DNA of 64,000 nt from Opitutia bacterium (GCA_016217595.1 JACRHS010000016.1:1-64000); one strand, 5' to 3'; shown: positions 6,186-20,672, counted from the first letter of the stretch. A program made the numbers and translations. Notes: generated by a model from the sequence alone, not told the origin.

Positions 6186-7940
6186 ATGCCCATCGAAACG
6201 CCCAACGGTACCTTGCCCGAATTGCTGCTCCGGATGATTTCCGGTCGGCAGTTGACCGAGACGGACGCCCGGGCGTTTCTCGCCCAACATCGCGGAGTGG
6301 CCGAGGCGACCGAAGAAGCGGTGCTGCGCTGGCTGGCGCACGAGTACGGCGTGGGCTTTGCCGCGCTCGACGAGCTGGAGCCCGACAAGCAGGTGCTCTC
6401 GCTCTTCCCGGCGCGACTGTTGCTGCGCGACGAGCTGCTCCCGCTCCGGCGGGTTGACGGGCAAATTGAAATCGCCACCAGCCGCCTGTTCGCCACACAG
6501 GGGCTGGATGGTTTGAAAACGCTCACCGGGCTGCGTCTGCGCCCGGTGCTGGCGCCGGTCGAGGCCATCCAACGCGAGATGAAGAAGCGTCTCGGCGTCG
6601 GCGCGGATACCATCGATACGCTCGACGAGGAGACCGCGCTGCAAGTGGTCGACGAAGATGGCAGCACGGATGCCAATCTCGACGAAGCCGCCGAGGACGC
6701 GTCGATCATCCGTTTCGTCAATCAGGTGTTGAAGGACGCGATCGATCTGCGCGCGTCGGACATCCACCTGGAGCCGTTCGAGGACGAATTGCGCATCCGC
6801 TACCGCATCGACGGCGTGTTGCAGGAAATTCCGGTGCCGGCGCAGATCAAACGCTTCCAGCCCGCCATCGTGGCGCGCGTAAAAATTCTCAGTCATCTCA
6901 ACATCGCCGAAAAACGCCTGCCGCAGGACGGCCGCATCAAGGTGCGCATCGACGAAGCGGAGGTCGACATCCGCGTCTCCGTGATTCCGATGCTGCACGG
7001 CGAGGCGGTGGTGCTGCGCTTGCTGCGCCAGAACGCCGCGCTGCGCGGTGTGAAAGAGCTGGGCATGAATGCCCGCGAGCTCGATTGCCTCTCCCGCGTG
7101 CTCCAGTTGCCGCACGGCATCATCCTCGTGACCGGTCCGACCGGCAGCGGCAAAACGTCCACGCTTTATACGGCGCTCCACGAGATCAACGACACCGAGC
7201 GTAAGATCGTGACCATCGAGGATCCGATCGAGTATCAGCTCAAGGGCGTGAACCAGATTCAGGTCTCGGAAAAGTCCGGGCTCACTTTCGCCCGCGGTTT
7301 GCGTTCCATTCTCCGCCACGATCCCGACGTGATTCTGATCGGCGAAATCCGCGATCAGGAAACCGCGCAGATCGCGGTGCAGGCGTCGCTCACCGGTCAC
7401 TTGGTGTTTTCGACGCTGCACACCAACGACGCGCCGGGCGCCATCACGCGTCTGGTCGACATGGGGGTGGAGCCTTACCTTGTCGCATCATCGCTCGAAG
7501 CGGTGCTGGCGCAACGGCTCGTGCGCGTGCTCTGCCCGCACTGCAAAGAGGTGGACACCACGCCGACCGCCCGCGCGTTCAAGGCGCGTATCGGCCTGCC
7601 CACCGATGCGCCGGTGTACCGCGCCGTGGGTTGCCGCGAATGCCGCCAGACCGGGTATCATGGCCGCCGCGCGATCTTCGAGTGGATGGATGTCGACGCC
7701 GAGATCCGGCAGATGATTTTGCAAAGTTCCTCGACCGATGTGCTGCGCGATGCCGCGCGGCGCGGCGGCATGACGACCCTGGCCGACGACGGCCGGCGGC
7801 TGGTGCAGTCGGGCATGACCACCATCGAGGAAGTGCTCAGCGTCACCACGGCGAAGGAAGTTTCGGCGGGATTGTCCAACGCGGCCAAGGATGCGGCCAC
7901 CGCGGCGAACGCAGCCGCTCTGCGTCCGGCGACGAAATAA
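6186..7940 (+). CDS. gspE: type II secretion system ATPase GspE (GspE/PilB family, with N-terminal GSPII_E_N domain)
   Basis: Walker A GPTGSGKTST, Asp box, His box, and a C-terminal tetracysteine CPHC...CREC. 584 aa. Confidence 0.9.
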   Translation: MPIETPNGTLPELLLRMISGRQLTETDARAFLAQHRGVAEATEEAVLRWLAHEYGVGFAALDELEPDKQVLSLFPARLLLRDELLPLRRVDGQIEIATSRLFATQGLDGLKTLTGLRLRPVLAPVEAIQREMKKRLGVGADTIDTLDEETALQVVDEDGSTDANLDEAAEDASIIRFVNQVLKDAIDLRASDIHLEPFEDELRIRYRIDGVLQEIPVPAQIKRFQPAIVARVKILSHLNIAEKRLPQDGRIKVRIDEAEVDIRVSVIPMLHGEAVVLRLLRQNAALRGVKELGMNARELDCLSRVLQLPHGIILVTGPTGSGKTSTLYTALHEINDTERKIVTIEDPIEYQLKGVNQIQVSEKSGLTFARGLRSILRHDPDVILIGEIRDQETAQIAVQASLTGHLVFSTLHTNDAPGAITRLVDMGVEPYLVASSLEAVLAQRLVRVLCPHCKEVDTTPTARAFKARIGLPTDAPVYRAVGCRECRQTGYHGRRAIFEWMDVDAEIRQMILQSSSTDVLRDAARRGGMTTLADDGRRLVQSGMTTIEEVLSVTTAKEVSAGLSNAAKDAATAANAAALRPATK

Positions 7941-7955
7941 TTTTCCGGTCCGACC

Positions 7956-9227
7956 ATGCCGCAATTCACCTACAAGGCCATGCAACGCGATGGCGTCCTC
8001 GTTGAGGGCGCGCTGGACGCTTCCGGCCGGCACGAGGCGTTGCGGCAGATCGAAATCAAGGGTCTGAAAACGGTCCGCCTGGTCGAGGCCGCGGGTGGCG
8101 CGGCCGCGGGAAAGCCGGGCGCGAACGGTTCCGCCCCGGGAGCGAATGGCGCGGCGCCGGGCTGGCTGCCGATGCTCAACCGGAAAAAGAAAATCACGGC
8201 GCGGATGCTGGAGAATTTCACCCGGTTGCTGTCCAGCCTGCTGGCAGCCGGCGTGCCGTTCAGCCGCGCGTTGGTGATTCTGCATCGCGAGGCGGTCGAG
8301 CCGGCCGCCAAGGAGAAGTGGAAGGAAATTCACGATCTGGTGATCGACGGCATGTCGCTTTCCGATGCGATGGCGCGCTCGCCGGAGACGTTTCCCCGGG
8401 TGTACGTGGCGATGGTCGAGGCGGGTGAGACGGGCGGTTTCCTCGATGTGGTGCTGGCGCAGATCGCCGATTTTCAGGCGCGGGAAAAAGAGCTGCAGGC
8501 GAAGGTGCTCACGGCACTCATGTACCCGCTGATCCTGCTCGTGCTGGCGCTGGCGGTGGTGGTGTTCCTGCTCGTGTTTTTCATTCCGCGTTTCCATCTG
8601 GTTTTCCAGGGCTTCAACGCCGAGCTGCCGCTGCTCACGCAGATGATTGTGAAGGCGAGCGAACTGGTGCGGCAGTACGGTTTGTTTATCGGCGCGGCGG
8701 TGGCGATCGCGGTGTTTTCGCTGCGGAGCTGGATCGCCTCCGAAAAAGGCCGGCGCGCGTGGAAGGGCATGTTGCTGCGGATGCCGATGGTCGGACCGCT
8801 GGTGGCGCAGTATGCGATGGCGCGTTTCTGCCGGATGCTGGGCACGCTGCTCGGCGCCGGCGTGCCACTGATCAATGGTCTCAACGTCGCCCGTCGCTCG
8901 ATCGGCAATCAGATTTTGGTCGATGCGGTCTCCGAATCGACGGATCGCGTGAAGGAGGGCAAACCGCTCGGCACGAGTCTCGCGAAGAGCCGGGAGCTGT
9001 TCCCCGGCGCGGTCGTCGAGATGATCTCGGTCGCCGAGGAAAGCGGCAAACTCGACCAGGAACTTGTGCGCATCGCCACGGTGACCGAGTCCGACCTCGA
9101 CCGGCAGCTCAAGACCCTCGTCGCGATGGCCGAGCCGCTGATGTTGTTCCTCATCGCAGCCTTCATCGGCACCATCTTCATCGGGATGCTGATCCCCATT
9201 TTCTCTCTGCAAGACCACATCAAATGA
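7956..9227 (+). CDS. gspF: type II secretion system inner-membrane platform protein GspF
   Basis: 423 aa with two GspF-type repeats and 3 TM segments. Sits directly after gspE. Confidence 0.88.
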   Translation: MPQFTYKAMQRDGVLVEGALDASGRHEALRQIEIKGLKTVRLVEAAGGAAAGKPGANGSAPGANGAAPGWLPMLNRKKKITARMLENFTRLLSSLLAAGVPFSRALVILHREAVEPAAKEKWKEIHDLVIDGMSLSDAMARSPETFPRVYVAMVEAGETGGFLDVVLAQIADFQAREKELQAKVLTALMYPLILLVLALAVVVFLLVFFIPRFHLVFQGFNAELPLLTQMIVKASELVRQYGLFIGAAVAIAVFSLRSWIASEKGRRAWKGMLLRMPMVGPLVAQYAMARFCRMLGTLLGAGVPLINGLNVARRSIGNQILVDAVSESTDRVKEGKPLGTSLAKSRELFPGAVVEMISVAEESGKLDQELVRIATVTESDLDRQLKTLVAMAEPLMLFLIAAFIGTIFIGMLIPIFSLQDHIK

Positions 9228-9679
9228 TTCCTGTCATGAACCTTCCTCGCAAACGTTCCCGTTCCTCCCGTCGTGCCTTCACCCTGGTGGAGCTGCTGCT
9301 GGTGCTCGTGATTCTCGGCACGCTCGCCGCCCTGGTGCTGCCCAAGTTCACCGGTCGCACCGAGCAGGCGCGCGTCACTGCGGCGCAGACGCAGATCGCC
9401 ACCTTCGGCACGGCGCTCGACGCGTTCGAGGTCGACACCGGCGGCTATCCGCGCGGTGCGGATGGCTTGCAGCAACTGATCGTGGCGCCCAGCGATGTCA
9501 CCGGCTGGCGCGGACCCTATCTGAAGAACGACATTCCGGTCGATCCGTGGGGGCATCCCTACGTGTACGAGTGCCCGGGAAAATTGAATCCCTCTGGCTA
9601 CGATGTGCGGTCCATGGGCCCCGACGGGCAGGCCGGCACCAACGATGACATCACCAACGGCTCAAATTCCGCCCGTTGA
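9224..9679 (+). CDS. gspG: major pseudopilin GspG
   Basis: Prepilin N-terminus RRAFTLVELLLVLVILG. GspG signature DPWGHPYVYECPG...YDVRSMGPDGQAGTNDDITN. ATGA overlap with gspF. Confidence 0.88.
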   Translation: MIPVMNLPRKRSRSSRRAFTLVELLLVLVILGTLAALVLPKFTGRTEQARVTAAQTQIATFGTALDAFEVDTGGYPRGADGLQQLIVAPSDVTGWRGPYLKNDIPVDPWGHPYVYECPGKLNPSGYDVRSMGPDGQAGTNDDITNGSNSAR

Positions 9680-10208
9680 GTCCGGCCCCCGGTCCCGGCG
9701 CGCCTTCACCCTGATCGAACTGATCCTGGTCATGGCTCTGCTTGCCATCGCCGCCGGACTGGCTGCGCCGCGCATGGCGTCGTTCTTCCGTGGTCGGACG
9801 CTCGACCAGGAAGTGCGGCGTTTGCACGCGCTGGCCAATTACGCGCAAAGCCGCGCGGTGGCCGAAGGCATGCCGGTGGTGTTGTGGCTCGATGCGCGCG
9901 CCGGCACCTACGGGCAGATGATCCAGACCGGTTTTGTCGACTTCGATGAGCGCGCGACGACCTTCACCGTGGATGCCACGCTGGCGTTGGAGACAACTGC
10001 TGCGGAGCCGACGCAGGCTTACGAGCCGGTCGATGAGACGCCCAACTTGCCCGAGGGGCAGGCGATGATCCGGTTTAGCCCCGAAGGCTATGTGGACGAG
10101 ATCAGCGTCCCCAAGGTTACTTTGCGCCAGGGCACCGAGATGGTGCGCGAGGTAGCGCTCACGGCCAACGGCCTCGGTTACGAAATTCTTCCCGCTCATG
10201 CGCCGTAA
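9645..10208 (+). CDS. gspH: minor pseudopilin (GspH-like)
   Basis: Prepilin-type N-terminus SRRAFTLIELILVMALLAIAAGL. Size and position after gspG. Start is uncertain: ATG 9645 overlaps gspG by 35 nt, and ATG 9603 is also in frame. Confidence 0.6.
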   Translation: MTSPTAQIPPVESGPRSRRAFTLIELILVMALLAIAAGLAAPRMASFFRGRTLDQEVRRLHALANYAQSRAVAEGMPVVLWLDARAGTYGQMIQTGFVDFDERATTFTVDATLALETTAAEPTQAYEPVDETPNLPEGQAMIRFSPEGYVDEISVPKVTLRQGTEMVREVALTANGLGYEILPAHAP

Positions 10209-10617
10209 TCCCGCCCAACGCTCACGCCGGGGTTTCACGCTCGCCGAGGTGCTGTGCGCGCTCGTGCTGATGGCGATCGTCATCCCGGTGGCGATGCAGG
10301 GCGTGAGTGTGGCGAGTCGCGCGGGATCGCTCGGCGAACGCAAGGCCACCGCCATGCGCATCGCGCGCAGCGTGCTCAACGAGCTGCTCGTCACCGAACA
10401 GGCCATCGAGACTTCGGCCAGCGGCACCGTGACCGAGGGCAGCACGGCCTATCCCTGGACGATGGAGTCGACGCCGTGGAGCGAGGACGCGATGTCGGTG
10501 CTCACGGTGAAGGTGACATTTTCGGTGCAGGGCAACAGCTACGACGTCAGCGTCAGCACACTCTACGATCCGTACGCGTCGTCCACCACCGCAGCCATCC
10601 CGGAGGCGATGTTGTGA
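10198..10617 (+). CDS. gspI: minor pseudopilin (GspI-like)
   Basis: 139 aa. Prepilin N-terminus SRRGFTLAEVLCALVLMAIV. Gene order. Confidence 0.65.
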   Translation: MRRNPAQRSRRGFTLAEVLCALVLMAIVIPVAMQGVSVASRAGSLGERKATAMRIARSVLNELLVTEQAIETSASGTVTEGSTAYPWTMESTPWSEDAMSVLTVKVTFSVQGNSYDVSVSTLYDPYASSTTAAIPEAML

Positions 10618-11324: not shown

Positions 11325-12685
11325 GCACGCACCGAAAATTTTCGCCGCTGCACTCTCACCGCGCAACTCGTGGCGCTGTGCTGGTCATGGTGCTGTGGAT
11401 CGTCTTCGGCCTGGTGGCATTGACGCTCTACTTCGCCAACTCGATGAGTTCGGAGCTGCGCGCCGCCGACAATCGCGTGGCGCAGATCGCGGCCGAAGAG
11501 GCGGTCGCGGGCGGGGCGCGTTACGTGGAATTTATTCTCAGTCAGTTCGCCGTGAACGGCGCGGTGCCGGTGGCGACGGATTACTCGGCGGAAGCCGTGC
11601 CGGTGGGCGATTGCTACTTCTGGATCATCGGACGCGATCCGAATCTGGAGCTCACCGATCAGCCGTTTTTCGGCATCGTGGATGAATCCTCGAAGATCAA
11701 TTTGAAAAACGCGAGCCAGTCGATGCTCGAATCGCTGCCGGGGATGACGCCGGAGTTTGCCGCGGCAATTCTCGACTGGCACGACACCGATTCGAACCCG
11801 CGCGAGGGCGGCGCCGAGGACGATGTGTACGCCCGGCTCGATCCGCCCCGGCTCTGCAAGAATGCGGCATTCGAGACGGTGGATGAGCTGCGTCTCGTGT
11901 ACGGTTCCACACTCGATCTCCTGTACGGCGAGGACGGCAATCGCAATGGCGTGCTCGATCGCAACGAGGATGATGGCGAGCAGTCGCTGCCGTTCGACGA
12001 TCGCAACGGTGTGCTCAACCCCGGGCTCTTCGAGTACGTGACCGTTTACAGCGCGCAGCCCAACACGCGCAGCGATGGTTCGCGCCGTGTGAATGTCACC
12101 GATAGCACCGAACAGGGTCGGCAGCGTCTGCGGCGCGTGTTGAGCGATAAACTCAATCCCGGCCGGGCGGATGAGATCATCAACCGGATCGGCAACATCG
12201 CGCTCACCAGTGTGCTGGAGTTCATCGTGCTCGCCCGTCTGACGGCCGAAGAATACGCGCAGATTCGCACCGATATTTCGGCCAGCGCCTCTGCCACGGT
12301 CAGCGGGCTCATCAATGTTGCCACGGCGAGTGAGACGGTGCTCGCCAGCATCCCCGGCATCGGGCCGGAAAAAGCGCCGTCGATCATCGCCTACCGGCAG
12401 GCGAATCCCGACAACCTCGCCTCGCTGGTTTGGGTCGCCGAGGTGCTGGGTGACAGCGATGCGAGACGCGCGGGGCGTTATCTCACTGATCAGTCTTATC
12501 TCTTTTCCGCCGACATCGCCGCCGTCGGCCGCTCCGGGCGCGGCTACGCCCGGGTGAAATTCGTTTTCGATATGAGCAAAGGCAAACCACGCATCGTCTA
12601 TCGTCAGGATCTGTCCGCCCTCGGCTGGGGTTTGGGCGCGACGGTCCGCGAGACGCTCAAACAAGCGAAGGAGACCTGGCAATGA
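11321..12685 (+). CDS. gspK: GspK-like large minor pseudopilin
   Basis: N-terminus RGAVLVMVLWIVFGLVAL resembles GspK (RGVALIxVLW). ~450 aa with an HhH-like region (ASIPGIGPEKAPSIIAY). GTG at 11321 overlaps the gspJ stop (GTGA); an alternative ATG is at 11387. Confidence 0.7.
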   Translation: MSTHRKFSPLHSHRATRGAVLVMVLWIVFGLVALTLYFANSMSSELRAADNRVAQIAAEEAVAGGARYVEFILSQFAVNGAVPVATDYSAEAVPVGDCYFWIIGRDPNLELTDQPFFGIVDESSKINLKNASQSMLESLPGMTPEFAAAILDWHDTDSNPREGGAEDDVYARLDPPRLCKNAAFETVDELRLVYGSTLDLLYGEDGNRNGVLDRNEDDGEQSLPFDDRNGVLNPGLFEYVTVYSAQPNTRSDGSRRVNVTDSTEQGRQRLRRVLSDKLNPGRADEIINRIGNIALTSVLEFIVLARLTAEEYAQIRTDISASASATVSGLINVATASETVLASIPGIGPEKAPSIIAYRQANPDNLASLVWVAEVLGDSDARRAGRYLTDQSYLFSADIAAVGRSGRGYARVKFVFDMSKGKPRIVYRQDLSALGWGLGATVRETLKQAKETWQ

Positions 12686-14085
12686 AAAGGATCGGTAAAA
12701 AACGGCCCCAGTCCGTACTCGGCCTTACGTTGGAGGGCGGTCGCCTGCGGGCGTGCCACGTCCGGCGGGTGAAAGGGCGGCTCGAAACGGGCAAGGCGAT
12801 TGCGGAGCCGCTGGCGCTCGACCTCTCGCGGCAGGAGCCCGAATTGCTCGGCGCAGAGATCAAAAATCTGCTCAACGCGGCGGGGCTGCGCGAGCGCCGC
12901 TGCGTGGCGGCAGTGCCGGCCGGGTGGGTGATGAGCCTGCACACGAAGTTGCCGGATCTGCCACCGGAGGACCTGGAGAGCTTTCTGCAACTGGAGACGG
13001 AGCGTGGCTTCCCCTGCGACAGCGCGCAGTTGCAGATCGCGCGTTCTTTCCATCGCACGGCGACGTCGGCGTACGTGATGCAGCTGGCGGTGCGCAAGGA
13101 ACAATTGGAACGGCTCGCCGAAGTGATGAAAGCGGCCGGGCTAAAGCCGGAGAGTTTCACGCTTGGCCTGACCGCATTGCCCGGCGTGCTTGCCGCGGAA
13201 GGCAAAGGCGGCGTGACCGTGGCGGTCGATCCCGCGGGTGCGACGCTGCTGTTCGCGGCTGGCGGCGGCATCGCGGCGTTTCGCTCTTTCGAGGCGGTGG
13301 TGGAGGCCGAGGCCGGCGCCCGGCTCGTCAATCACGCGGCGGTGGCGCGCGAGTTGCGCATCACGCTCGAACAAGTGCCGGCGGAGTTGCGGAGCGAGCT
13401 GCACGGCCTGCGATTGCTCGGCGACGAACCCATGGTTCGGCAGATGGAGGAATGCCTGGCCGGCTGGGCTCGCGGCACCGGACTGACCTTGGAGGCCGGC
13501 GGCACACCCGAGGGCCGCATGGCCGACGCCGTGGCGGAATATCTCGCCCGCGGCTGGTTGGAAAGCGACGCGGGTGCGTTAAACTTTCTACCGCCACGCC
13601 AGAGCCAGTGGCATCGCCTGATCGCGCGTTACAACGCGAAACGGCTGGGCACGATCGGCGCCGCGCTCGGCGCGGCGGCGGTGATCGCGCTGGGCGCATT
13701 CGTCTGGCAGGAGTTCCGGCTGTGGTCGTTGCGCTCGACGTGGTCCGATATGAAACCGCAGGTGACGGAGCTGGAGGCGGTGCAGGCGCGCGTGCGCGAG
13801 TACCGGTCGTGGTACGACACGAGCTACCGTTACCTGAGCGTGCTGCGGCTGGTCACAAACGCGTTCCCCGACAACGGCAGCGTGACGGCCAAGACTTTTG
13901 AAATTCGCAATATGTCGGTCGTCAGCGTCTCCGGTGTCACCCGCGACAACGCGGCGTTGCTGAAGACGCTCAACCAACTGCGCCAGACCCGCGAAGTCAC
14001 CGGCCTCAAGGTCGAACAGATCCGCGGCAAGTCGCCGTCGCAGTTCACCTTCAACTTCCGGTGGAACGGAAACACCAGCCCATGA
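12682..14085 (+). CDS. gspL: GspL-like (PilM-PilN-like fusion): cytoplasmic actin-like domain, one TM helix, periplasmic domain
   Basis: 467 aa. N-terminal cytoplasmic region, single TM (IGAALGAAAVIALGAFVW), periplasmic C-terminal domain. ATGA overlap with gspK. Confidence 0.6.
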   Translation: MKRIGKKRPQSVLGLTLEGGRLRACHVRRVKGRLETGKAIAEPLALDLSRQEPELLGAEIKNLLNAAGLRERRCVAAVPAGWVMSLHTKLPDLPPEDLESFLQLETERGFPCDSAQLQIARSFHRTATSAYVMQLAVRKEQLERLAEVMKAAGLKPESFTLGLTALPGVLAAEGKGGVTVAVDPAGATLLFAAGGGIAAFRSFEAVVEAEAGARLVNHAAVARELRITLEQVPAELRSELHGLRLLGDEPMVRQMEECLAGWARGTGLTLEAGGTPEGRMADAVAEYLARGWLESDAGALNFLPPRQSQWHRLIARYNAKRLGTIGAALGAAAVIALGAFVWQEFRLWSLRSTWSDMKPQVTELEAVQARVREYRSWYDTSYRYLSVLRLVTNAFPDNGSVTAKTFEIRNMSVVSVSGVTRDNAALLKTLNQLRQTREVTGLKVEQIRGKSPSQFTFNFRWNGNTSP

Positions 14086-14624
14086 ATCTCCCTCATCGAC
14101 AACGCTGGCTCGTGATTCTGGCCGGAGCCGCCGTGCTGCTGCTGGTGCTGGACAGCATCGTATTCACGCCACTGGCGAAATATTGGAAGGATCGCTCGAC
14201 CGAGATCGTTTCGCTGCAGAAACAAATCGCCAACGGTCGGAGCATGATCGAGCGGGCGCAGCACACCGAAGGTCTCTGGAAAGAAATGCAGGCGGGCGCG
14301 CTGCCCAAGGACCCCGCGCAGGCTGAACAAGAAGTGATTTCCGCCTTCGACCGCTGGGGCCAGGCGAACGGGGTTACGCTCGGTTCGATCAAGCCACAGT
14401 GGAAGCGTGGCGCCAATGCCCGCTACTCCTTGCTCGAATGCCGCATCGATGCCACGGGCACGCTGGCGAATCTCACCCGCTTTCTTTATGAGGTCGAAAA
14501 ATCTCCGCTCGCGCTCCGGATCGATTCCGTGGAACTCGCGACGCGCGACGACTACGGTCAGAAACTTTCGCTCGGCCTGCTCATCAGCGGCCTGCGTCTG
14601 ACTCCGTTGGAGGGCAAACCATGA
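14082..14624 (+). CDS. gspM: GspM/PilO-like bitopic membrane protein
   Basis: Short N-terminus, TM (WLVILAGAAVLLLVL), coiled coil, periplasmic domain. ATGA overlap with gspL. Track start 14061 is GTG. Confidence 0.5.
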   Translation: MNLPHRQRWLVILAGAAVLLLVLDSIVFTPLAKYWKDRSTEIVSLQKQIANGRSMIERAQHTEGLWKEMQAGALPKDPAQAEQEVISAFDRWGQANGVTLGSIKPQWKRGANARYSLLECRIDATGTLANLTRFLYEVEKSPLALRIDSVELATRDDYGQKLSLGLLISGLRLTPLEGKP

Positions 14625-15268
14625 AGAAGTCATACCACCCGCCGGGACGCACCCTCAGTCACCGCGGTTGTGCCATTGTCGTATTAACGCTCTGCCTCGT
14701 GCTGTCGGGCTTCGCCGCCCGGGACGCGAGCCAGCCGCGCAACAATGCCGTGGCAAAAGCCGCCAAGGTCGCGCCGGCCGATCCATTCGACCCGTTTCGC
14801 CTGATCGGTGAGCGAAATATTTTTAATCCCAATCGCGTCGGCGCCTCGAACCGCAGCGCGGTGGTCGAGCCGGCAGGTCCGGTAGGCGATACCATCACGT
14901 TGGTGGGCACGTTGGAATCGGAGCAGGGGCTTTATGCCTTCTTCGATTGCGACGACCCGAGCTTCCGCAAGGTGCTAGCTCCGGGAGCAAAAATTGCGGG
15001 CTATACCGTGGCGCAGGTGCAGACCGGAAGCATCGCGCTCGAACGCGATGCCAAGACGACTCCGCTGCGCGTCACCGGTCAATTGCACCGCGCCGAAGGC
15101 GGCGATTGGACCATCGTGACCGGCGAAGCGGTCCGCCGCGAAACGCCCTTGATTCAATCCGGCCCTGAACGCGCCGGCACAGGCAGCAGTTTGCCCGCCA
15201 TCCCCCCGGATGCCTCTGAAGTGCTCAAGCGACTCATGGAGAAACGACAGCAACAATTGAAAGAATGA
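14621..15268 (+). CDS. GspC/PilP-like secretin-interacting protein (HR-type beta-sandwich, no PDZ)
   Basis: TM anchor, Pro-rich linker, PilP/GspC-HR-like segment ITLVGTLESEQGLYAFFDCDDPSFRKVLAPGAKIAGYTVAQVQTGSIALERDAKTTPLRVTG. ATGA overlaps at both ends. Confidence 0.5.
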   Translation: MKKSYHPPGRTLSHRGCAIVVLTLCLVLSGFAARDASQPRNNAVAKAAKVAPADPFDPFRLIGERNIFNPNRVGASNRSAVVEPAGPVGDTITLVGTLESEQGLYAFFDCDDPSFRKVLAPGAKIAGYTVAQVQTGSIALERDAKTTPLRVTGQLHRAEGGDWTIVTGEAVRRETPLIQSGPERAGTGSSLPAIPPDASEVLKRLMEKRQQQLKE

Positions 15269-16470
15269 AAACGATCATCCTCACTCCGAAATTCTGGCTT
15301 GGCTTCGCCCTCCTCGCGGTCGGCGCTACCGCGCAAGAGCAACCTCCCTCGTCTGAGACCAAGGCCCCGCCGCCTGAATCCGCGCCCGCCGATGTTGCCG
15401 CCGCTAAAAAGGAGGCAGGGCTGCGCTTCAACTTCCGCGGTGCGCCGCTGGAAATGGTGCTCAACTATCTGAGCGAGGCCGCCGGCTTTGTCATCGTGCT
15501 GGAGACGCCGGTCCGCGGCTCGGTCGACATGTGGAGCGCCCAGCCGGTGACCAAGGAGGAGGCCGTGCAGTTGCTCAACCTCGCGTTGAACAAGAACGGC
15601 TTCACCGCCACCACCCAGGGGCGCAACTTGATCATCGCCTCCAAAGACGAGGCCAAGAAGCGCAACATCCCGATCCGCACGGGCAACGATCCGAAGGAAA
15701 TCCCCATGACGGCCGAGCTTGTCATGCAGATCATTCCGCTGCGCCACATCGATGCCATGCAGGTGTCGCGCGATCTCGCCACGCTCATCCCGAGCAGCTC
15801 CACGATCACGGCCAATCAGGACAGCAATTCGCTGGTCGTCACCGACACCCAGATCAACATCCGCCACGTGGTGGAGCTGGTGGCCGCGCTCGACACCTCG
15901 GTCGAAAGCGTCACCGCCATGAAGGTCTTCCGGCTCACCAACGCCGATGCCGTCGAGATGGCGCAGCTGTTGACCAGTATCTTCCAGACGCCGAACACCA
16001 ACACGGGGGCGCGTACGGCCGCCGCGATGCCCTTCAACCCCGCCGCGATGATGGGCATGGGGGCGATGCAAAACGCCGCCGCCAACATGATGCGCAACCG
16101 CGCGATGCAAGGCGGCTCTCGCAGCACCGGCACACAGGACCGGCGGCCGGTCGTGGTCACGGCCGTGGCCGATCCCCGCACCTCGTCGGTGATCGTGACG
16201 GCGACAAAGAACATCATGCCCCAGATCGCCGAGATCGTCGCGCAATTGGATGCCGACGCCGCCAGCCAGCAGAAGGTCTTCGTCTACACCATGGAGAACG
16301 CCAACGTCCGCCAGGTGGAGACGGCGCTGAAGAATATTTTCCCCAGCAGCAACAACCGCAGCACGAACACCAATCAAAACGACCCGTTGACTACGCGCGC
16401 GGCCAACACCCAGCAGCAGTCGAACTCGTCACTCTCCGGCAACTCGTCCGCCAACCGGCTACGGCGGTAA
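15265..16470 (+). CDS. gspD: secretin N-terminal-domain protein (GspD N0-N1-N2 plus first half of N3), own signal peptide
   Basis: Signal peptide MKTIILTPKFWLGFALLAVGATA|QEQ. N0-like domain and repeated Secretin_N-type beta-alpha...RTNSLIV...LD units. Ends right after beta1-alpha1 of a further Secretin_N unit (QKVFVYTMENANVRQVETALKNIF) in an N/S/T-rich tail, then TAA. Confidence 0.8.
   Translation: MKTIILTPKFWLGFALLAVGATAQEQPPSSETKAPPPESAPADVAAAKKEAGLRFNFRGAPLEMVLNYLSEAAGFVIVLETPVRGSVDMWSAQPVTKEEAVQLLNLALNKNGFTATTQGRNLIIASKDEAKKRNIPIRTGNDPKEIPMTAELVMQIIPLRHIDAMQVSRDLATLIPSSSTITANQDSNSLVVTDTQINIRHVVELVAALDTSVESVTAMKVFRLTNADAVEMAQLLTSIFQTPNTNTGARTAAAMPFNPAAMMGMGAMQNAAANMMRNRAMQGGSRSTGTQDRRPVVVTAVADPRTSSVIVTATKNIMPQIAEIVAQLDADAASQQKVFVYTMENANVRQVETALKNIFPSSNNRSTNTNQNDPLTTRAANTQQQSNSSLSGNSSANRLRR
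16354..16375 (+). repeat. direct repeat copy 1 (AACCGCAGCACGAACACCAATC, encodes NRSTNTN)
   Basis: 20/22 identical to 16616..16637. Lies 5' of the secretin break. Confidence 0.7.
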
Positions 16471-16510
16471 TGCGCTGCGGCTCCCTCAATCGAACGCAAA
16501 GGAAATTACC

Positions 16511-17653
16511 ATGATCCCAACGCTTTTTCCCTCGTGCCCGCGCGTATTGCTGGCTCTCGGTCTGTTGCTTCTGGCCAGCCCGGCCGGCTTGTTGGCGCAA
16601 AATCGCACCAACACCAACCGTAGCACCAACACCAATCGCTCCAACGCAGGTGGCAATGCCAGCCGCGCCGGCAGCGCCGGCTCCCGCCAGTATTCCAATT
16701 CCACCATGGTCGGCGACGCCACCATCACGAGCGACCCCGAGACGCGCCGTCTCATCGTCGTCACGGATGAGGAGACCAACAAACAAATCCGCACCATCAT
16801 CGCCAGCCTCGACAAACCGAAGCCGCAGGTGCTGATCAACGTCGTTTTCCTCCAGGTCACACACAACGACAACCTCGACCTCGGCACCGAGGCGACTTGG
16901 ACGGACCGCGCATTGGGGCCCAACAAGAGCATCCTGGCCACCGCTTCCACCGGCTTCGGGCTCGCGGCGGCTGCGGCCGATCCCACCACGGCGGGCGGTT
17001 TCTACCGGCTTCTCGGCAATGATCTCAACGCGACCATTCACGCGCTCGCGGCCAAGAACAAAACCGAGATTCTCTCCCGCCCGTCGGTGCTCACCCGCAG
17101 CAGTCAGCAGGCGACGATCATGGTCGGCCAGTCCGTGCCGATCATCACCAACTCGCGCGTCAGCGACACCACCAATACCACCATCAACACCGTCCAATAT
17201 CAGGACGTCGGCATCATCCTCCGCGTCACCCCGTACATCACGGAAGAGGGGCTCGTGGAGATGATCGTGTCGCCGGAAATTTCGTCGCTCAGCGCGCAGA
17301 CGGTGCCGATCTCCAACAACGTCAGCTCGCCGGTGATCGATCGCCGCTCGGCTGACACGGTGGTTGTCACACCCAGCGACCGCACCGTCGTCATCGGCGG
17401 CCTGATCTCCACGCAGAAGACGAAAAAGCAGAACAAGGTGCCGATCCTCGGCGACATTCCGCTGCTCGGCATGGCGTTCAAACGCAACATCGACGCCGAC
17501 GAGAAGACCGAGCTGCTGATCTTCCTCACGCCGCACGTCGTGCAGCGTCCCGAGGACTTGTCCAATTTGGCCAACAGCGAGCGCAACAATCTGGAAATGG
17601 CGCCCAAGGCTTTTGAGCAAAAGGAACTCAACAAATATCTCGGCAAACCCTAG
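16511..17653 (+). CDS. gspD: secretin C-terminal protein (second half of N3 plus secretin pore domain), own signal peptide
   Basis: AAGGAA 7 nt upstream of the ATG. Signal peptide MIPTLFPSCPRVLLALGLLLLASPAGLLA|QN. N/S/T-rich stretch, then ATITSDPETRRLIVVTDEETNKQIRTIIASLDKP (beta2-beta3-alpha2 of Secretin_N). Secretin core follows (LSRPSVLTRSSQQATIMVG...VPILGDIPLLGMAF...TELLIFLTPHVV). Confidence 0.8.
   Translation: MIPTLFPSCPRVLLALGLLLLASPAGLLAQNRTNTNRSTNTNRSNAGGNASRAGSAGSRQYSNSTMVGDATITSDPETRRLIVVTDEETNKQIRTIIASLDKPKPQVLINVVFLQVTHNDNLDLGTEATWTDRALGPNKSILATASTGFGLAAAAADPTTAGGFYRLLGNDLNATIHALAAKNKTEILSRPSVLTRSSQQATIMVGQSVPIITNSRVSDTTNTTINTVQYQDVGIILRVTPYITEEGLVEMIVSPEISSLSAQTVPISNNVSSPVIDRRSADTVVVTPSDRTVVIGGLISTQKTKKQNKVPILGDIPLLGMAFKRNIDADEKTELLIFLTPHVVQRPEDLSNLANSERNNLEMAPKAFEQKELNKYLGKP
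16616..16637 (+). repeat. direct repeat copy 2 (AACCGTAGCACCAACACCAATC, encodes NRSTNTN)
   Basis: Lies 3' of the internal signal peptide of the second secretin ORF. Tandemly reiterated locally (TNTNRSTNTNRS). Confidence 0.7.
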
Positions 17654-17713: not shown

Positions 17714-19216
17714 ATGTCCTGGCAAATCGCAAAACGCAGCTCGCTGGTCTACGTCGCCTTGGCGGCGGTCGTGCTCGGCGTCGGTGCGTGGCAGACGGTG
17801 GAGCACCGCCGCGTGCGGCAGGCGGCGCGGCAGGAGTTGATCAACCGCGGTCGCGATATCACCTCGACGCTCGGCGTGGTGGTGCGTTCGCAGCGCCGGT
17901 TCGGGCTCGTCATCTCCAAGGAACGGATCGAGTCCGCGCTCCAGGATCTGGTCCGGCCCGATTACCTGGAGTCCATTGCCATCCTCGGCGCCACGGGCGA
18001 GCCCATCGTCAGTGCCGGCCCGGCGGTCGATCTGACGCCTGAAATGCTGAAGGAGCGCGGCGAGTTTTGGCACCACCGCACGCTCACGTTGATGAATTTG
18101 ATGGATCTGGGCGCCAGCCAGCCCGAAGCCGGCGCGCACGCTCCGCCGGCGTTGGTGCTGCCGGATGAGCGCCTCGCCCGTGTCCGGCGCTCGCCCGCGG
18201 GCAGTCGCGCCGCCGCGAATGCTGCCAAAGCGGGGAAAGCTCCAGCTCCTGCGACGACGACAACTGCCCCTGCCGCGACTGCAGGCGCGAGCGGCACTCC
18301 GCCATTCGGCCGCCCCTCATGGATGAGCCAGGAGGAATACGAGTCGGTGATCCAGAAACAGGGCATGCACAGCCTCGTCATCGTGCTTTCGACGGAGGCC
18401 ATGCAGCGGGCGTTGCAGCGCGATCTGCTGTTGCGCTCGTTGATCAGTCTCTTCGCCCTCGCGGCGGCTACGCTCTCCGTGCTGGCCTGGCGCAATTTCA
18501 GCAAAAACGCCGAGCTCCAGCTCCGCCTCATCAAAGCCGGCGAGATGAATACCCACCTCAAGGAGATGAATCTCGCCGCCGCCGGCCTCGCGCATGAGAC
18601 GCGCAATCCGCTCAACCTCATCCGCGGCATGGCGCAGATGATCACCATGCAGACGCAAAGTGCGCCTCAGCTCCGTCAGCACGCCGAGGCCATCATGGAA
18701 GAAGCCGACCGGGTGGCGGCGCAGTTGAACGAATTCATCAACTACTCCAAGCCGCGCGAAGCGCACCCCGCGCCGGTGGAACTCAATCGAGTCGCCGCCG
18801 ATGTGGCGCGCACGCTGGTGCCCGATCTCGAAGAGAAACGTATTCGGCTGCGCCTGCCCGAAGCGCCGTTGCGCATCCTCGCGGACGAACCGCTCCTGCG
18901 GCAGACGTTGTTCAATCTATTGCTCAACGCCACGCAGGCCGTTGAGGCCGGCGGGCAGATCGAACTGGCAGTCGCGGTGACCGAGTCCGGGAAGGCCACA
19001 TTGGAAATTCGCGACGACGGACCGGGCGTGCCCGCCGCCCAGCGCACTTCTATTTTCAAACCGTATGTGACGATGCGCCCCAAAGGCGTGGGCCTCGGGC
19101 TGGCGATTGTGCAGCAGATCGTGTCCGCCCATGGCTGGGAAATAGTGTGCACGGAGAATCAACCGCGTGGCGCGATCTTCCGCATCAGCCAGCTCAAGGT
19201 GGCTCCGGCGACGTGA
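17714..19216 (+). CDS. sensor histidine kinase, PilS/NtrB-like (2 TM, periplasmic sensor domain)
   Basis: Two TM segments flank a ~200-aa periplasmic region. H-box AHETRNPLNLIRG (NtrB/PilS-type). HATPase_c motifs DDGPGVP and GVGLGLAIV. Confidence 0.85.
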   Translation: MSWQIAKRSSLVYVALAAVVLGVGAWQTVEHRRVRQAARQELINRGRDITSTLGVVVRSQRRFGLVISKERIESALQDLVRPDYLESIAILGATGEPIVSAGPAVDLTPEMLKERGEFWHHRTLTLMNLMDLGASQPEAGAHAPPALVLPDERLARVRRSPAGSRAAANAAKAGKAPAPATTTTAPAATAGASGTPPFGRPSWMSQEEYESVIQKQGMHSLVIVLSTEAMQRALQRDLLLRSLISLFALAAATLSVLAWRNFSKNAELQLRLIKAGEMNTHLKEMNLAAAGLAHETRNPLNLIRGMAQMITMQTQSAPQLRQHAEAIMEEADRVAAQLNEFINYSKPREAHPAPVELNRVAADVARTLVPDLEEKRIRLRLPEAPLRILADEPLLRQTLFNLLLNATQAVEAGGQIELAVAVTESGKATLEIRDDGPGVPAAQRTSIFKPYVTMRPKGVGLGLAIVQQIVSAHGWEIVCTENQPRGAIFRISQLKVAPAT

Positions 19217-19304
19217 AGTGGCACTTCTTGGCTGGCACGCAAATCGCGCGTAAATCCACTCGCGCACTTTGGCGGCGGTCGTTCAAATCCACCCCGACCG
19301 GATC

Positions 19305-20672
<1,368 letters not shown>

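Follow-up and report, generated by a model that had tools for sequence, protein, structure and literature searches.

How does a type II secretion operon provide its outer-membrane channel when two short genes stand in the place of gspD? Secretins serve as the textbook case of a large outer-membrane channel, which is assembled from 12–15 copies of one long polypeptide. In a 64,000-nucleotide (nt) stretch of DNA from an Opitutia bacterium (GCA_016217595.1 JACRHS010000016.1:1-64000; hereafter the window, the whole stretch in which all positions below are counted), a gspE-F-H-I-J-K-L-M operon ends with a pair of open reading frames (ORFs) instead of one gspD gene. ORF1 (gspD-N, 15265..16470, 401 amino acids (aa)) corresponds to an N-terminal and ORF2 (gspD-C, 16511..17653, 380 aa) to a C-terminal secretin chain, as delimited by the reading frames, Pfam and the matches to the NCBIfam GspD equivalog TIGR02517. 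Probably they are two functional, co-transcribed genes that jointly replace the single gspD of the type II system. The leading hypothesis, to which we assign a probability of roughly 0.7, is a two-chain secretin in which one periplasmic domain, N3, would be completed in trans.

A preliminary description of the window had placed two ORFs at these coordinates, in different frames and 40 nt apart, and the same ORFs were recovered here, both on the plus strand, as are all features described below for the window. The spacer (16471..16510, 40 nt) contains a Shine-Dalgarno-like AAGGAA at 16499-16504. This hexamer precedes the ATG of ORF2 as had been described, but its distance from the start codon was counted as 6 nt and not 7. 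ORF1 begins within the end of the preceding gene, with whose stop it shares 4 nt (ATGA). Each secretin half occurs only once in the window, and a cluster look-up showed that automated pipelines label both halves "GspD".

Taken in order, the domains of the two products follow those of one secretin. ORF1 starts with a signal peptide (15265..15333; MKTIILTPKFWLGFALLAVGATA before QEQ, the cleavage site being placed by the Ala-x-Ala rule), followed by the N0 domain (15427..15630, aa 55-122; PF21305, E = 2e-11), which aligns to N0 of solved GspD structures. Pfam assigned Secretin_N units behind N0 as far as aa 331. Alignments to Protein Data Bank (PDB) entries placed N2 at 15922..16257 (aa 220-331, the best stretch for PF03958) and N1 just upstream of it (aa ~150-215). 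The ORF then continues with the segment N3a, corresponding to β1-α1 of N3 (16270..16341, aa 336-359; QKVFVYTMENANVRQVETALKNIF), and ends in a low-complexity tail rich in Asn, Ser, Thr and Gln (16342..16467, aa 360-401). ORF2 opens with a signal peptide of its own (16511..16597; MIPTLFPSCPRVLLALGLLLLASPAGLLA before QNR). The mature chain begins with a low-complexity linker (16598..16711, aa 30-67) ending in a conserved Q-Y-x-N...G motif, of which QYSN (aa 60-63, 16688-16699) lies just before β2. It is followed by the segment N3b, corresponding to β2-β3-α2 of N3 (16712..16828, aa 68-106; GDATITSDPETRRLIVVTDEETNKQIRTIIASLDKPKPQ), and by the secretin pore domain (17042..17545, aa 178-345), which matched PF00263 over positions 1-169 of 169 with 164.5 bits (E = 2e-48). 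The C-terminal tail (17546..17650, aa 346-380) forms two helices in the predicted model, is weakly conserved (0.33) and is possibly S-domain-like.

The position of the break was read from solved structures. ORF1 aa 300-358 align with residues 204-262 of Vibrio cholerae GspD (5wq8), in a stretch that ends in NNRVVYLKYAKAEDLVEVLKGV; on the GspD fold it reads as the end of N2 plus β1-α1 of N3. ORF2 matched GspD and XcpQ in the PDB at E = 4e-38. Its aa 64-106 align with Pseudomonas aeruginosa XcpQ (5wln, from residue 284) in the stretch that leads directly into the secretin domain, and read as β2-β3-α2 of N3. Together, the two alignments place the break in the α1-β2 loop of N3. The claims that ORF1 carries N0 and Secretin_N units and stops after β1-α1, and that ORF2 resumes with β2-β3-α2 and the pore domain, were thus borne out by Pfam, TIGR02517 and the structural alignments.

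Family profiles gave the same picture when the ORFs were scored separately and joined. Against TIGR02517 (cutoff 351.35 bits), ORF1 scored 154.2 bits over positions 1-293 and ORF2 241.0 bits over positions 262-599, both below the cutoff, whereas ORF1 concatenated with mature ORF2 gave one collinear match over positions 1-599 of 600 with 386.2 bits, above it. The pair therefore holds N0, three Secretin_N units (N3 only when its pieces are combined), PF00263 and the operon context of a GspD; as a single polypeptide, neither ORF reached 351.35 bits. The concatenation scored only 189.9 bits against the PilQ profile TIGR02515, below the subfamily cutoff of 284.35, and the pseudopilins of the operon are of the GspH/I/J/K type. 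ORF2 alone matched only positions 31-69 of the Secretin_N profile (aa 68-106) with 21.8 bits, under the cutoff of 28.2 bits. When N3a and N3b were joined without the loop, the match extended over positions 1-69 of 69 and rose to 41.4 bits, above the cutoff. The stitched N3 also matched, weakly, the ferredoxin-like HMA profile.

The next point is whether the break is peculiar to this genome. In a genome scan with one genome per species, at least 586 genomic matches were obtained; the 80 most similar of them, together with the window and four earlier loci, were classified by ORF structure and tblastn. Fifty-eight loci were split, 21 unsplit and six cut by contig ends. All 58 split loci (37-71% identity) have the two-gene layout with the same gene order and are broken in the same N3 loop. 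They carry the labels Opitutaceae, Opitutus, Spartobacteria, Chthoniobacteraceae, Pedosphaera, Limisphaerales, Verrucomicrobiales and Verrucomicrobiia; in addition, there are two bins labelled Sumerlaeota/BRC1 and a few whose labels are implausible. The two-gene secretin apparently spans the phylum Verrucomicrobiota, as judged from the loci compared. Loci from bins with implausible labels (L025, L043 and L052; Cyanophyceae, Klebsiella and Acidiferrales) carry a Verrucomicrobiota-type pair, their contigs being probably mis-binned.

The best match of ORF2 (71%) came from a groundwater Verrucomicrobia metagenome-assembled genome (MAG), with Opitutaceae MAGs next. The 120 best ORF2 relatives (63-76% identity) are all 379-404 aa long, and the 120 best ORF1 homologues are all 381-430 aa long, with N0 and Secretin_N and without the pore domain. 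In a library of 1.84 billion proteins clustered at 50% identity, short forms head the list down to ~42% identity, and the first full-length secretins occur from rank 23 on, at 49% identity.

Conservation within the split group extends to both sides of the break. Every split locus has N3a (consensus QKVFVYxLENADxxQVxxxLxxLF) at the end of ORF1 and β2-β3-α2 behind the ORF2 linker; N3a is likewise present inside all unsplit relatives. Mean pairwise identity among split loci was 0.45 for N3a and 0.52 for N3b, compared with 0.50 for N1 and 0.50 for the N2 core, and 0.28 for the ORF1 tail. Both N3 pieces are under constraint, N3a being conserved about as well as intact domains. Between split and unsplit loci, identity was 0.32 for N3a and 0.30 for N3b, as against 0.45-0.50 for N0, N1 and the pore domain. 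The two pieces are thus the structured regions most divergent from the unsplit relatives, which fits their joint adaptation after fission.

The second signal peptide is the other hallmark of the split loci. At the start of both ORFs of the window, an n-region and a hydrophobic core precede an Ala-x-Ala/Ala-Gln site. In the ORF2 homologues inspected, 120 close ones and distant ones at 38-55% identity, the hydrophobic core follows a basic n-region and leads to a small-x-small site, behind which Gln usually stands. The n-region contains Lys or Arg in 119 of the 120 close homologues, and Ala29-Gln30 is nearly invariant in the distant ones. Mean pairwise identity of the ORF2 signal peptide is low (0.25), as would be expected if only physical character were selected; the second signal peptide is best read as a selected feature conserved in character only. 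The canonical signal peptide that had been ascribed to ORF2 was therefore found again, with its hydrophobic core and Ala-Gln site kept in homologues.

Against this background, an artefact or a decayed gene can be weighed together with recoding. A sequencing or assembly error, or a strain-specific pseudogene, might be suspected since an exact copy of ORF2 was not found in the public collection. Yet dozens of independent assemblies show the same break, among them contigs and chromosomes of megabase scale (L001, 8.86 Mb; L027, 7.9 Mb; L032, 6.5 Mb; L033, 4.5 Mb), and conservation reaches across deep divergence for both halves as well as for the second signal peptide. The probability of such an error or pseudogene is negligible. 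Comparison of orthologous loci, which the preliminary description had left to decide whether the split was a strain-specific pseudogene, settled the point, since the orthologues are not contiguous genes and 58 of 58 loci in the split clade have two genes. The split is a conserved gene architecture, and neither an error nor a pseudogene. Programmed recoding, in which a ribosomal frameshift or stop-codon read-through would fuse the ORFs into one GspD, finds some support in their adjacency, common orientation and 40-nt spacing, and in the shared frame of the two ORFs in 23 of 55 related loci. The frame of ORF2 relative to ORF1 is, however, distributed 23/16/16 over 0/+1/+2 in these 55 split loci, the spacers vary (mostly 2-54 nt, one of 104 nt) and six in-frame spacers hold two or three stop codons. 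Given this spread of frames and the multiple stops, one protein could not be recovered by any single indel or recoding event. Neither a conserved frame relation nor a recoding site between the ORFs was found among the related loci; every ORF2 has its own ATG, preceded in the window by the Shine-Dalgarno-like site. In a fusion, moreover, the conserved hydrophobic signal peptide would come to lie within a periplasmic loop where the unsplit relatives have no hydrophobic stretch: the best 10-residue Kyte-Doolittle mean in the α1-β2 interval never exceeds 1.65 among the unsplit relatives, whereas every split locus reaches 2.03 or more. The same comparison upheld the earlier argument that a hydrophobic stretch at this place speaks against a frameshift error. 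We consider recoding very improbable.

In the two-chain secretin proposed here, each chain would be exported by the Sec pathway via its own cleavable signal peptide. The C-chain, with half of N3, the pore domain and the C-terminal tail, would form the multimeric outer-membrane channel, and the N-chain, with N0, N1, N2 and the other half of N3, would supply the periplasmic rings reaching the inner-membrane platform. The β1-α1 unit at the end of ORF1 would complete the β2-β3-α2 unit at the start of mature ORF2 and so hold the two chains together, one ordinary ring-building N3 domain being made from two chains, presumably in a 1:1 assembly. The disordered tail and linker would remain as loose ends at the site of the ancestral loop. 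From the matches of the stitched N3 to Secretin_N and, weakly, to HMA, we infer that β1 would pair with β3 and that α1 would pack beside α2. Neither fragment of a split β-α-β-β-α fold should be stable alone, which makes complementation plausible. The stricter claim, that the secretin is obligately two-chained and that its N3 has to be assembled from fragments of two separately exported proteins, we favour only slightly over its negation.

The main competitor accepts that both genes are functional and their products exported, with N3 not rebuilt. ORF2 would then be a self-sufficient short secretin, and ORF1 a separate periplasmic ring or adaptor that docks otherwise (e.g., via an L-x-x-R motif in its tail) or binds only the inner-membrane platform. 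Truncated secretins without N0-N2 can still multimerise in vitro, and the ORF1 tail and the ORF2 linker each carry their own conserved short motifs. The tail motif, (P/A)-L-x-x-R, appears in the window as DPLTTR (aa 373-378, 16381-16398), with Arg378 invariant in an alignment of 23 diverse pairs. Several unsplit relatives also carry an Arg shortly after α1, so the motif may be an ordinary part of N3. Structure prediction gave the ORF1 piece no confident placement, which also suits a pair of independent proteins. On the other hand, a lone β1-α1 or β2-β3-α2 would expose the core of the β-α-β-β-α fold, the N3 pieces are as conserved as intact domains and, combined, they give the complete Secretin_N match that the ORF2 piece alone does not reach. 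That the two genes are strictly adjacent and have a joint phylogeny adds to these arguments. All in all, we regard independent action of the two proteins as unlikely.

Several points weigh against completion of N3 in trans and against the breadth claimed for the two-chain secretin. A fused construct (ORF1 aa 329-401 plus mature ORF2) modelled without an alignment reached a mean predicted local distance difference test (pLDDT) score of 37, the two N3 pieces being its only semi-confident parts. In a model built with ORF2-only homologues, whose signal peptides lay over the ORF1 piece, that piece scored ~40, a value that for this reason speaks neither for nor against its placement, and the strands and helix of N3b were predicted at pLDDT 66-81. 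The signal peptides of both ORFs were judged from hydropathy and motif rather than by a trained predictor, and the taxon labels are those of metagenome bins. The sole evidence of expression is incidental: a Trinity transcript in a eukaryote transcriptome collection, presumably a bacterial contaminant, encodes a complete ORF2 homologue of 387 aa (P0009), a sign that the short gene is transcribed.

The origin of the split can be approached through the unsplit relatives. The nearest of these secretins show 38-45% identity to ORF2; their sequences run collinear with ORF1 followed by ORF2, and both N3 pieces are present. Each unsplit locus has one gene, for a product of 684-967 aa. Most belong to Planctomycetota (Phycisphaerae, Tepidisphaerales, Pirellulales and Brocadiaceae; e.g., Poriferisphaera sp. 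WC338, locus L077), besides single loci with the labels Sumerlaeota and Ratteibacteria and two given only as "bacterium". Their N3 α1-β2 loop is continuous, 36-112 aa long and rich in Gly, Ser and Thr. Neighbour-joining trees were built separately from the N-half and the C-half columns, and for each half one bipartition parted all split from all unsplit loci in 100 of 100 bootstraps. As the trees are unrooted and the method is simple, one ancient fission of the GspD gene is likely, not proven. Such a fission would have occurred once, inside an already long Gly/Ser/Thr-rich N3 loop, and would have been kept since throughout Verrucomicrobiota. Two split loci labelled Sumerlaeota/BRC1 (L034 and L040) sit inside the split group, while the Sumerlaeota locus L059 is unsplit and groups with the unsplit ones; the former two could be due to horizontal transfer or a binning error.

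The pair resembles classical GspD (PulD, EpsD, XcpQ; 5wq7, 5wq8, 5wln) in its domain order, i.e., signal peptide, N0-N3, secretin domain and C-terminal tail, and in the operon with gspE, F and H-M. It differs in being encoded by two genes: the N3 α1-β2 loop is interrupted by a stop codon and a spacer, after which come a new start and a second signal peptide. That such a split was not known for GspD or PilQ secretins had been remarked before; in agreement with this, the literature, the searchable part of which is incomplete, yielded no description of such a split for type II or type IV pilus secretins, and only the rhizobial type III "split secretin" turned up.

The rhizobial case consists of RhcC1 (NolW) and RhcC2, and the meaning of its split is unknown (Gazi et al. 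2012, PMC3574062; Tampakaki 2014, PMC3973906). There, too, the secretin function has been proposed to be shared by an N-terminal protein with N0 and one Secretin_N unit and a separate pore protein. We took nolW and rhcC2 from plasmid pNGR234a of Sinorhizobium fredii NGR234. NolW (L089:20373-21077, plus strand) is 234 aa long, with N0 and one Secretin_N unit. RhcC2 (L089:32670-34097, minus strand), encoded beside a CpaD-family lipoprotein, has 474 aa and the Pfam domains T2SS-T3SS_pil_N, BON and Secretin. In contrast to ORF1 and ORF2, these genes of a type III system are encoded on different strands, with ~11 kb between them, and do not line up with one ancestral gene broken at a single loop. 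Each domain of the rhizobial pair lies wholly in one protein, whereas ORF2 lacks T2SS-T3SS_pil_N and BON and has only half a Secretin_N unit. Nor are ORF1 and ORF2 surrounded by a type III secretion cluster, their neighbours being type II secretion genes. By its domains, RhcC2 is a complete Tad/CpaC-type secretin, so the rhizobial case is not a cut through a domain of one collinear gene. A more fitting description is an N0-N1 protein together with a Tad-type secretin that was recruited. Some type III systems have been reported to use a Tad-type secretin, which agrees with the domains of RhcC2. A precedent in the same superfamily of type IV filament machines is the inner-membrane platform TadB/TadC of Tad pili, for which a fission kept as tandem genes has been proposed as an ancient event (Denise et al. 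2019, PMC6668835). It differs in that two whole homologous T2SSF domains of a cytoplasmic-membrane protein were parted, no domain was cut and no new export signal arose.

A secretin in two chains would be a natural experiment on which parts are needed for targeting and multimerisation, on the N3 ring in assembly and on the coupling of the rings to the pore. The fission poses an evolutionary puzzle, since one and the same loop had to acquire a stop and a start codon as well as a new export signal. The divided domain sits directly beneath the outer-membrane pore. If N3 is indeed completed in trans, the pore and periplasmic modules could be made, targeted and perhaps docked or exchanged independently. 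The locus would then represent a natural protein-fragment complementation fixed for the lifetime of a phylum, with a signal peptide invented inside a disordered loop. In practical terms, neither half passes the curated GspD threshold, hence automated surveys that expect one gene may miscall the type II systems of Verrucomicrobiota or flag fragments.

The remaining genes of the operon precede the pair. Pfam identified gspE (T2SSE, 6186-7940), gspF (T2SSF, 7956-9227), gspH (GspH, 9603-10208), gspI (T2SSI, 10198-10617), a gspJ-like gene (T2SSJ, to 11324) and a gspK-like gene (T2SSK_1st, to 12685). Weaker matches were obtained for a gspL/PilM-like gene (12682-14085, 467 aa) and a gspM/PilO-like gene (14061-14624). 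The gene directly before ORF1 (14621-15268) encodes a 215-aa protein with an N-terminal membrane anchor and no Pfam match. Its position matches that of a conserved gene for 211-235 aa in related loci, and it may be a GspC/PilP-like partner of the N0 domain. Directly downstream of ORF2, Pfam identified a histidine kinase (17714-19216), followed by a sigma-54-dependent response regulator (19269-20672). Four related loci (L001-L004) share the order I, J, K, L-like, M-like, small protein, N-half, a gap of 34-36 nt, C-half, kinase and regulator. In distant relatives, the kinase and regulator also follow the split secretin genes (L001:7216-10043; L002:7290-10057). This suggests a conserved regulatory pair for the secretion operon, although the regulatory link itself is inferred.

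Two further observations concern the secretin chains. The N2 domain of ORF1 contains a Met/Ala/Asn-rich insert of ~50 aa (15994-16149, aa 244-295) between α1 and β2, i.e., in the same loop in which N3 is broken, so this loop seems generally permissive to insertion in the family. The relatives of ORF2 also include giant secretins of 1,650-5,500 aa (P0188, P0192, P0207, P0264 and others). P0188 (3,927 aa) has N0, 38 tandem Secretin_N units and one pore domain, and P0192 (1,666 aa) has 11 units; such proteins would form an extremely long periplasmic conduit.

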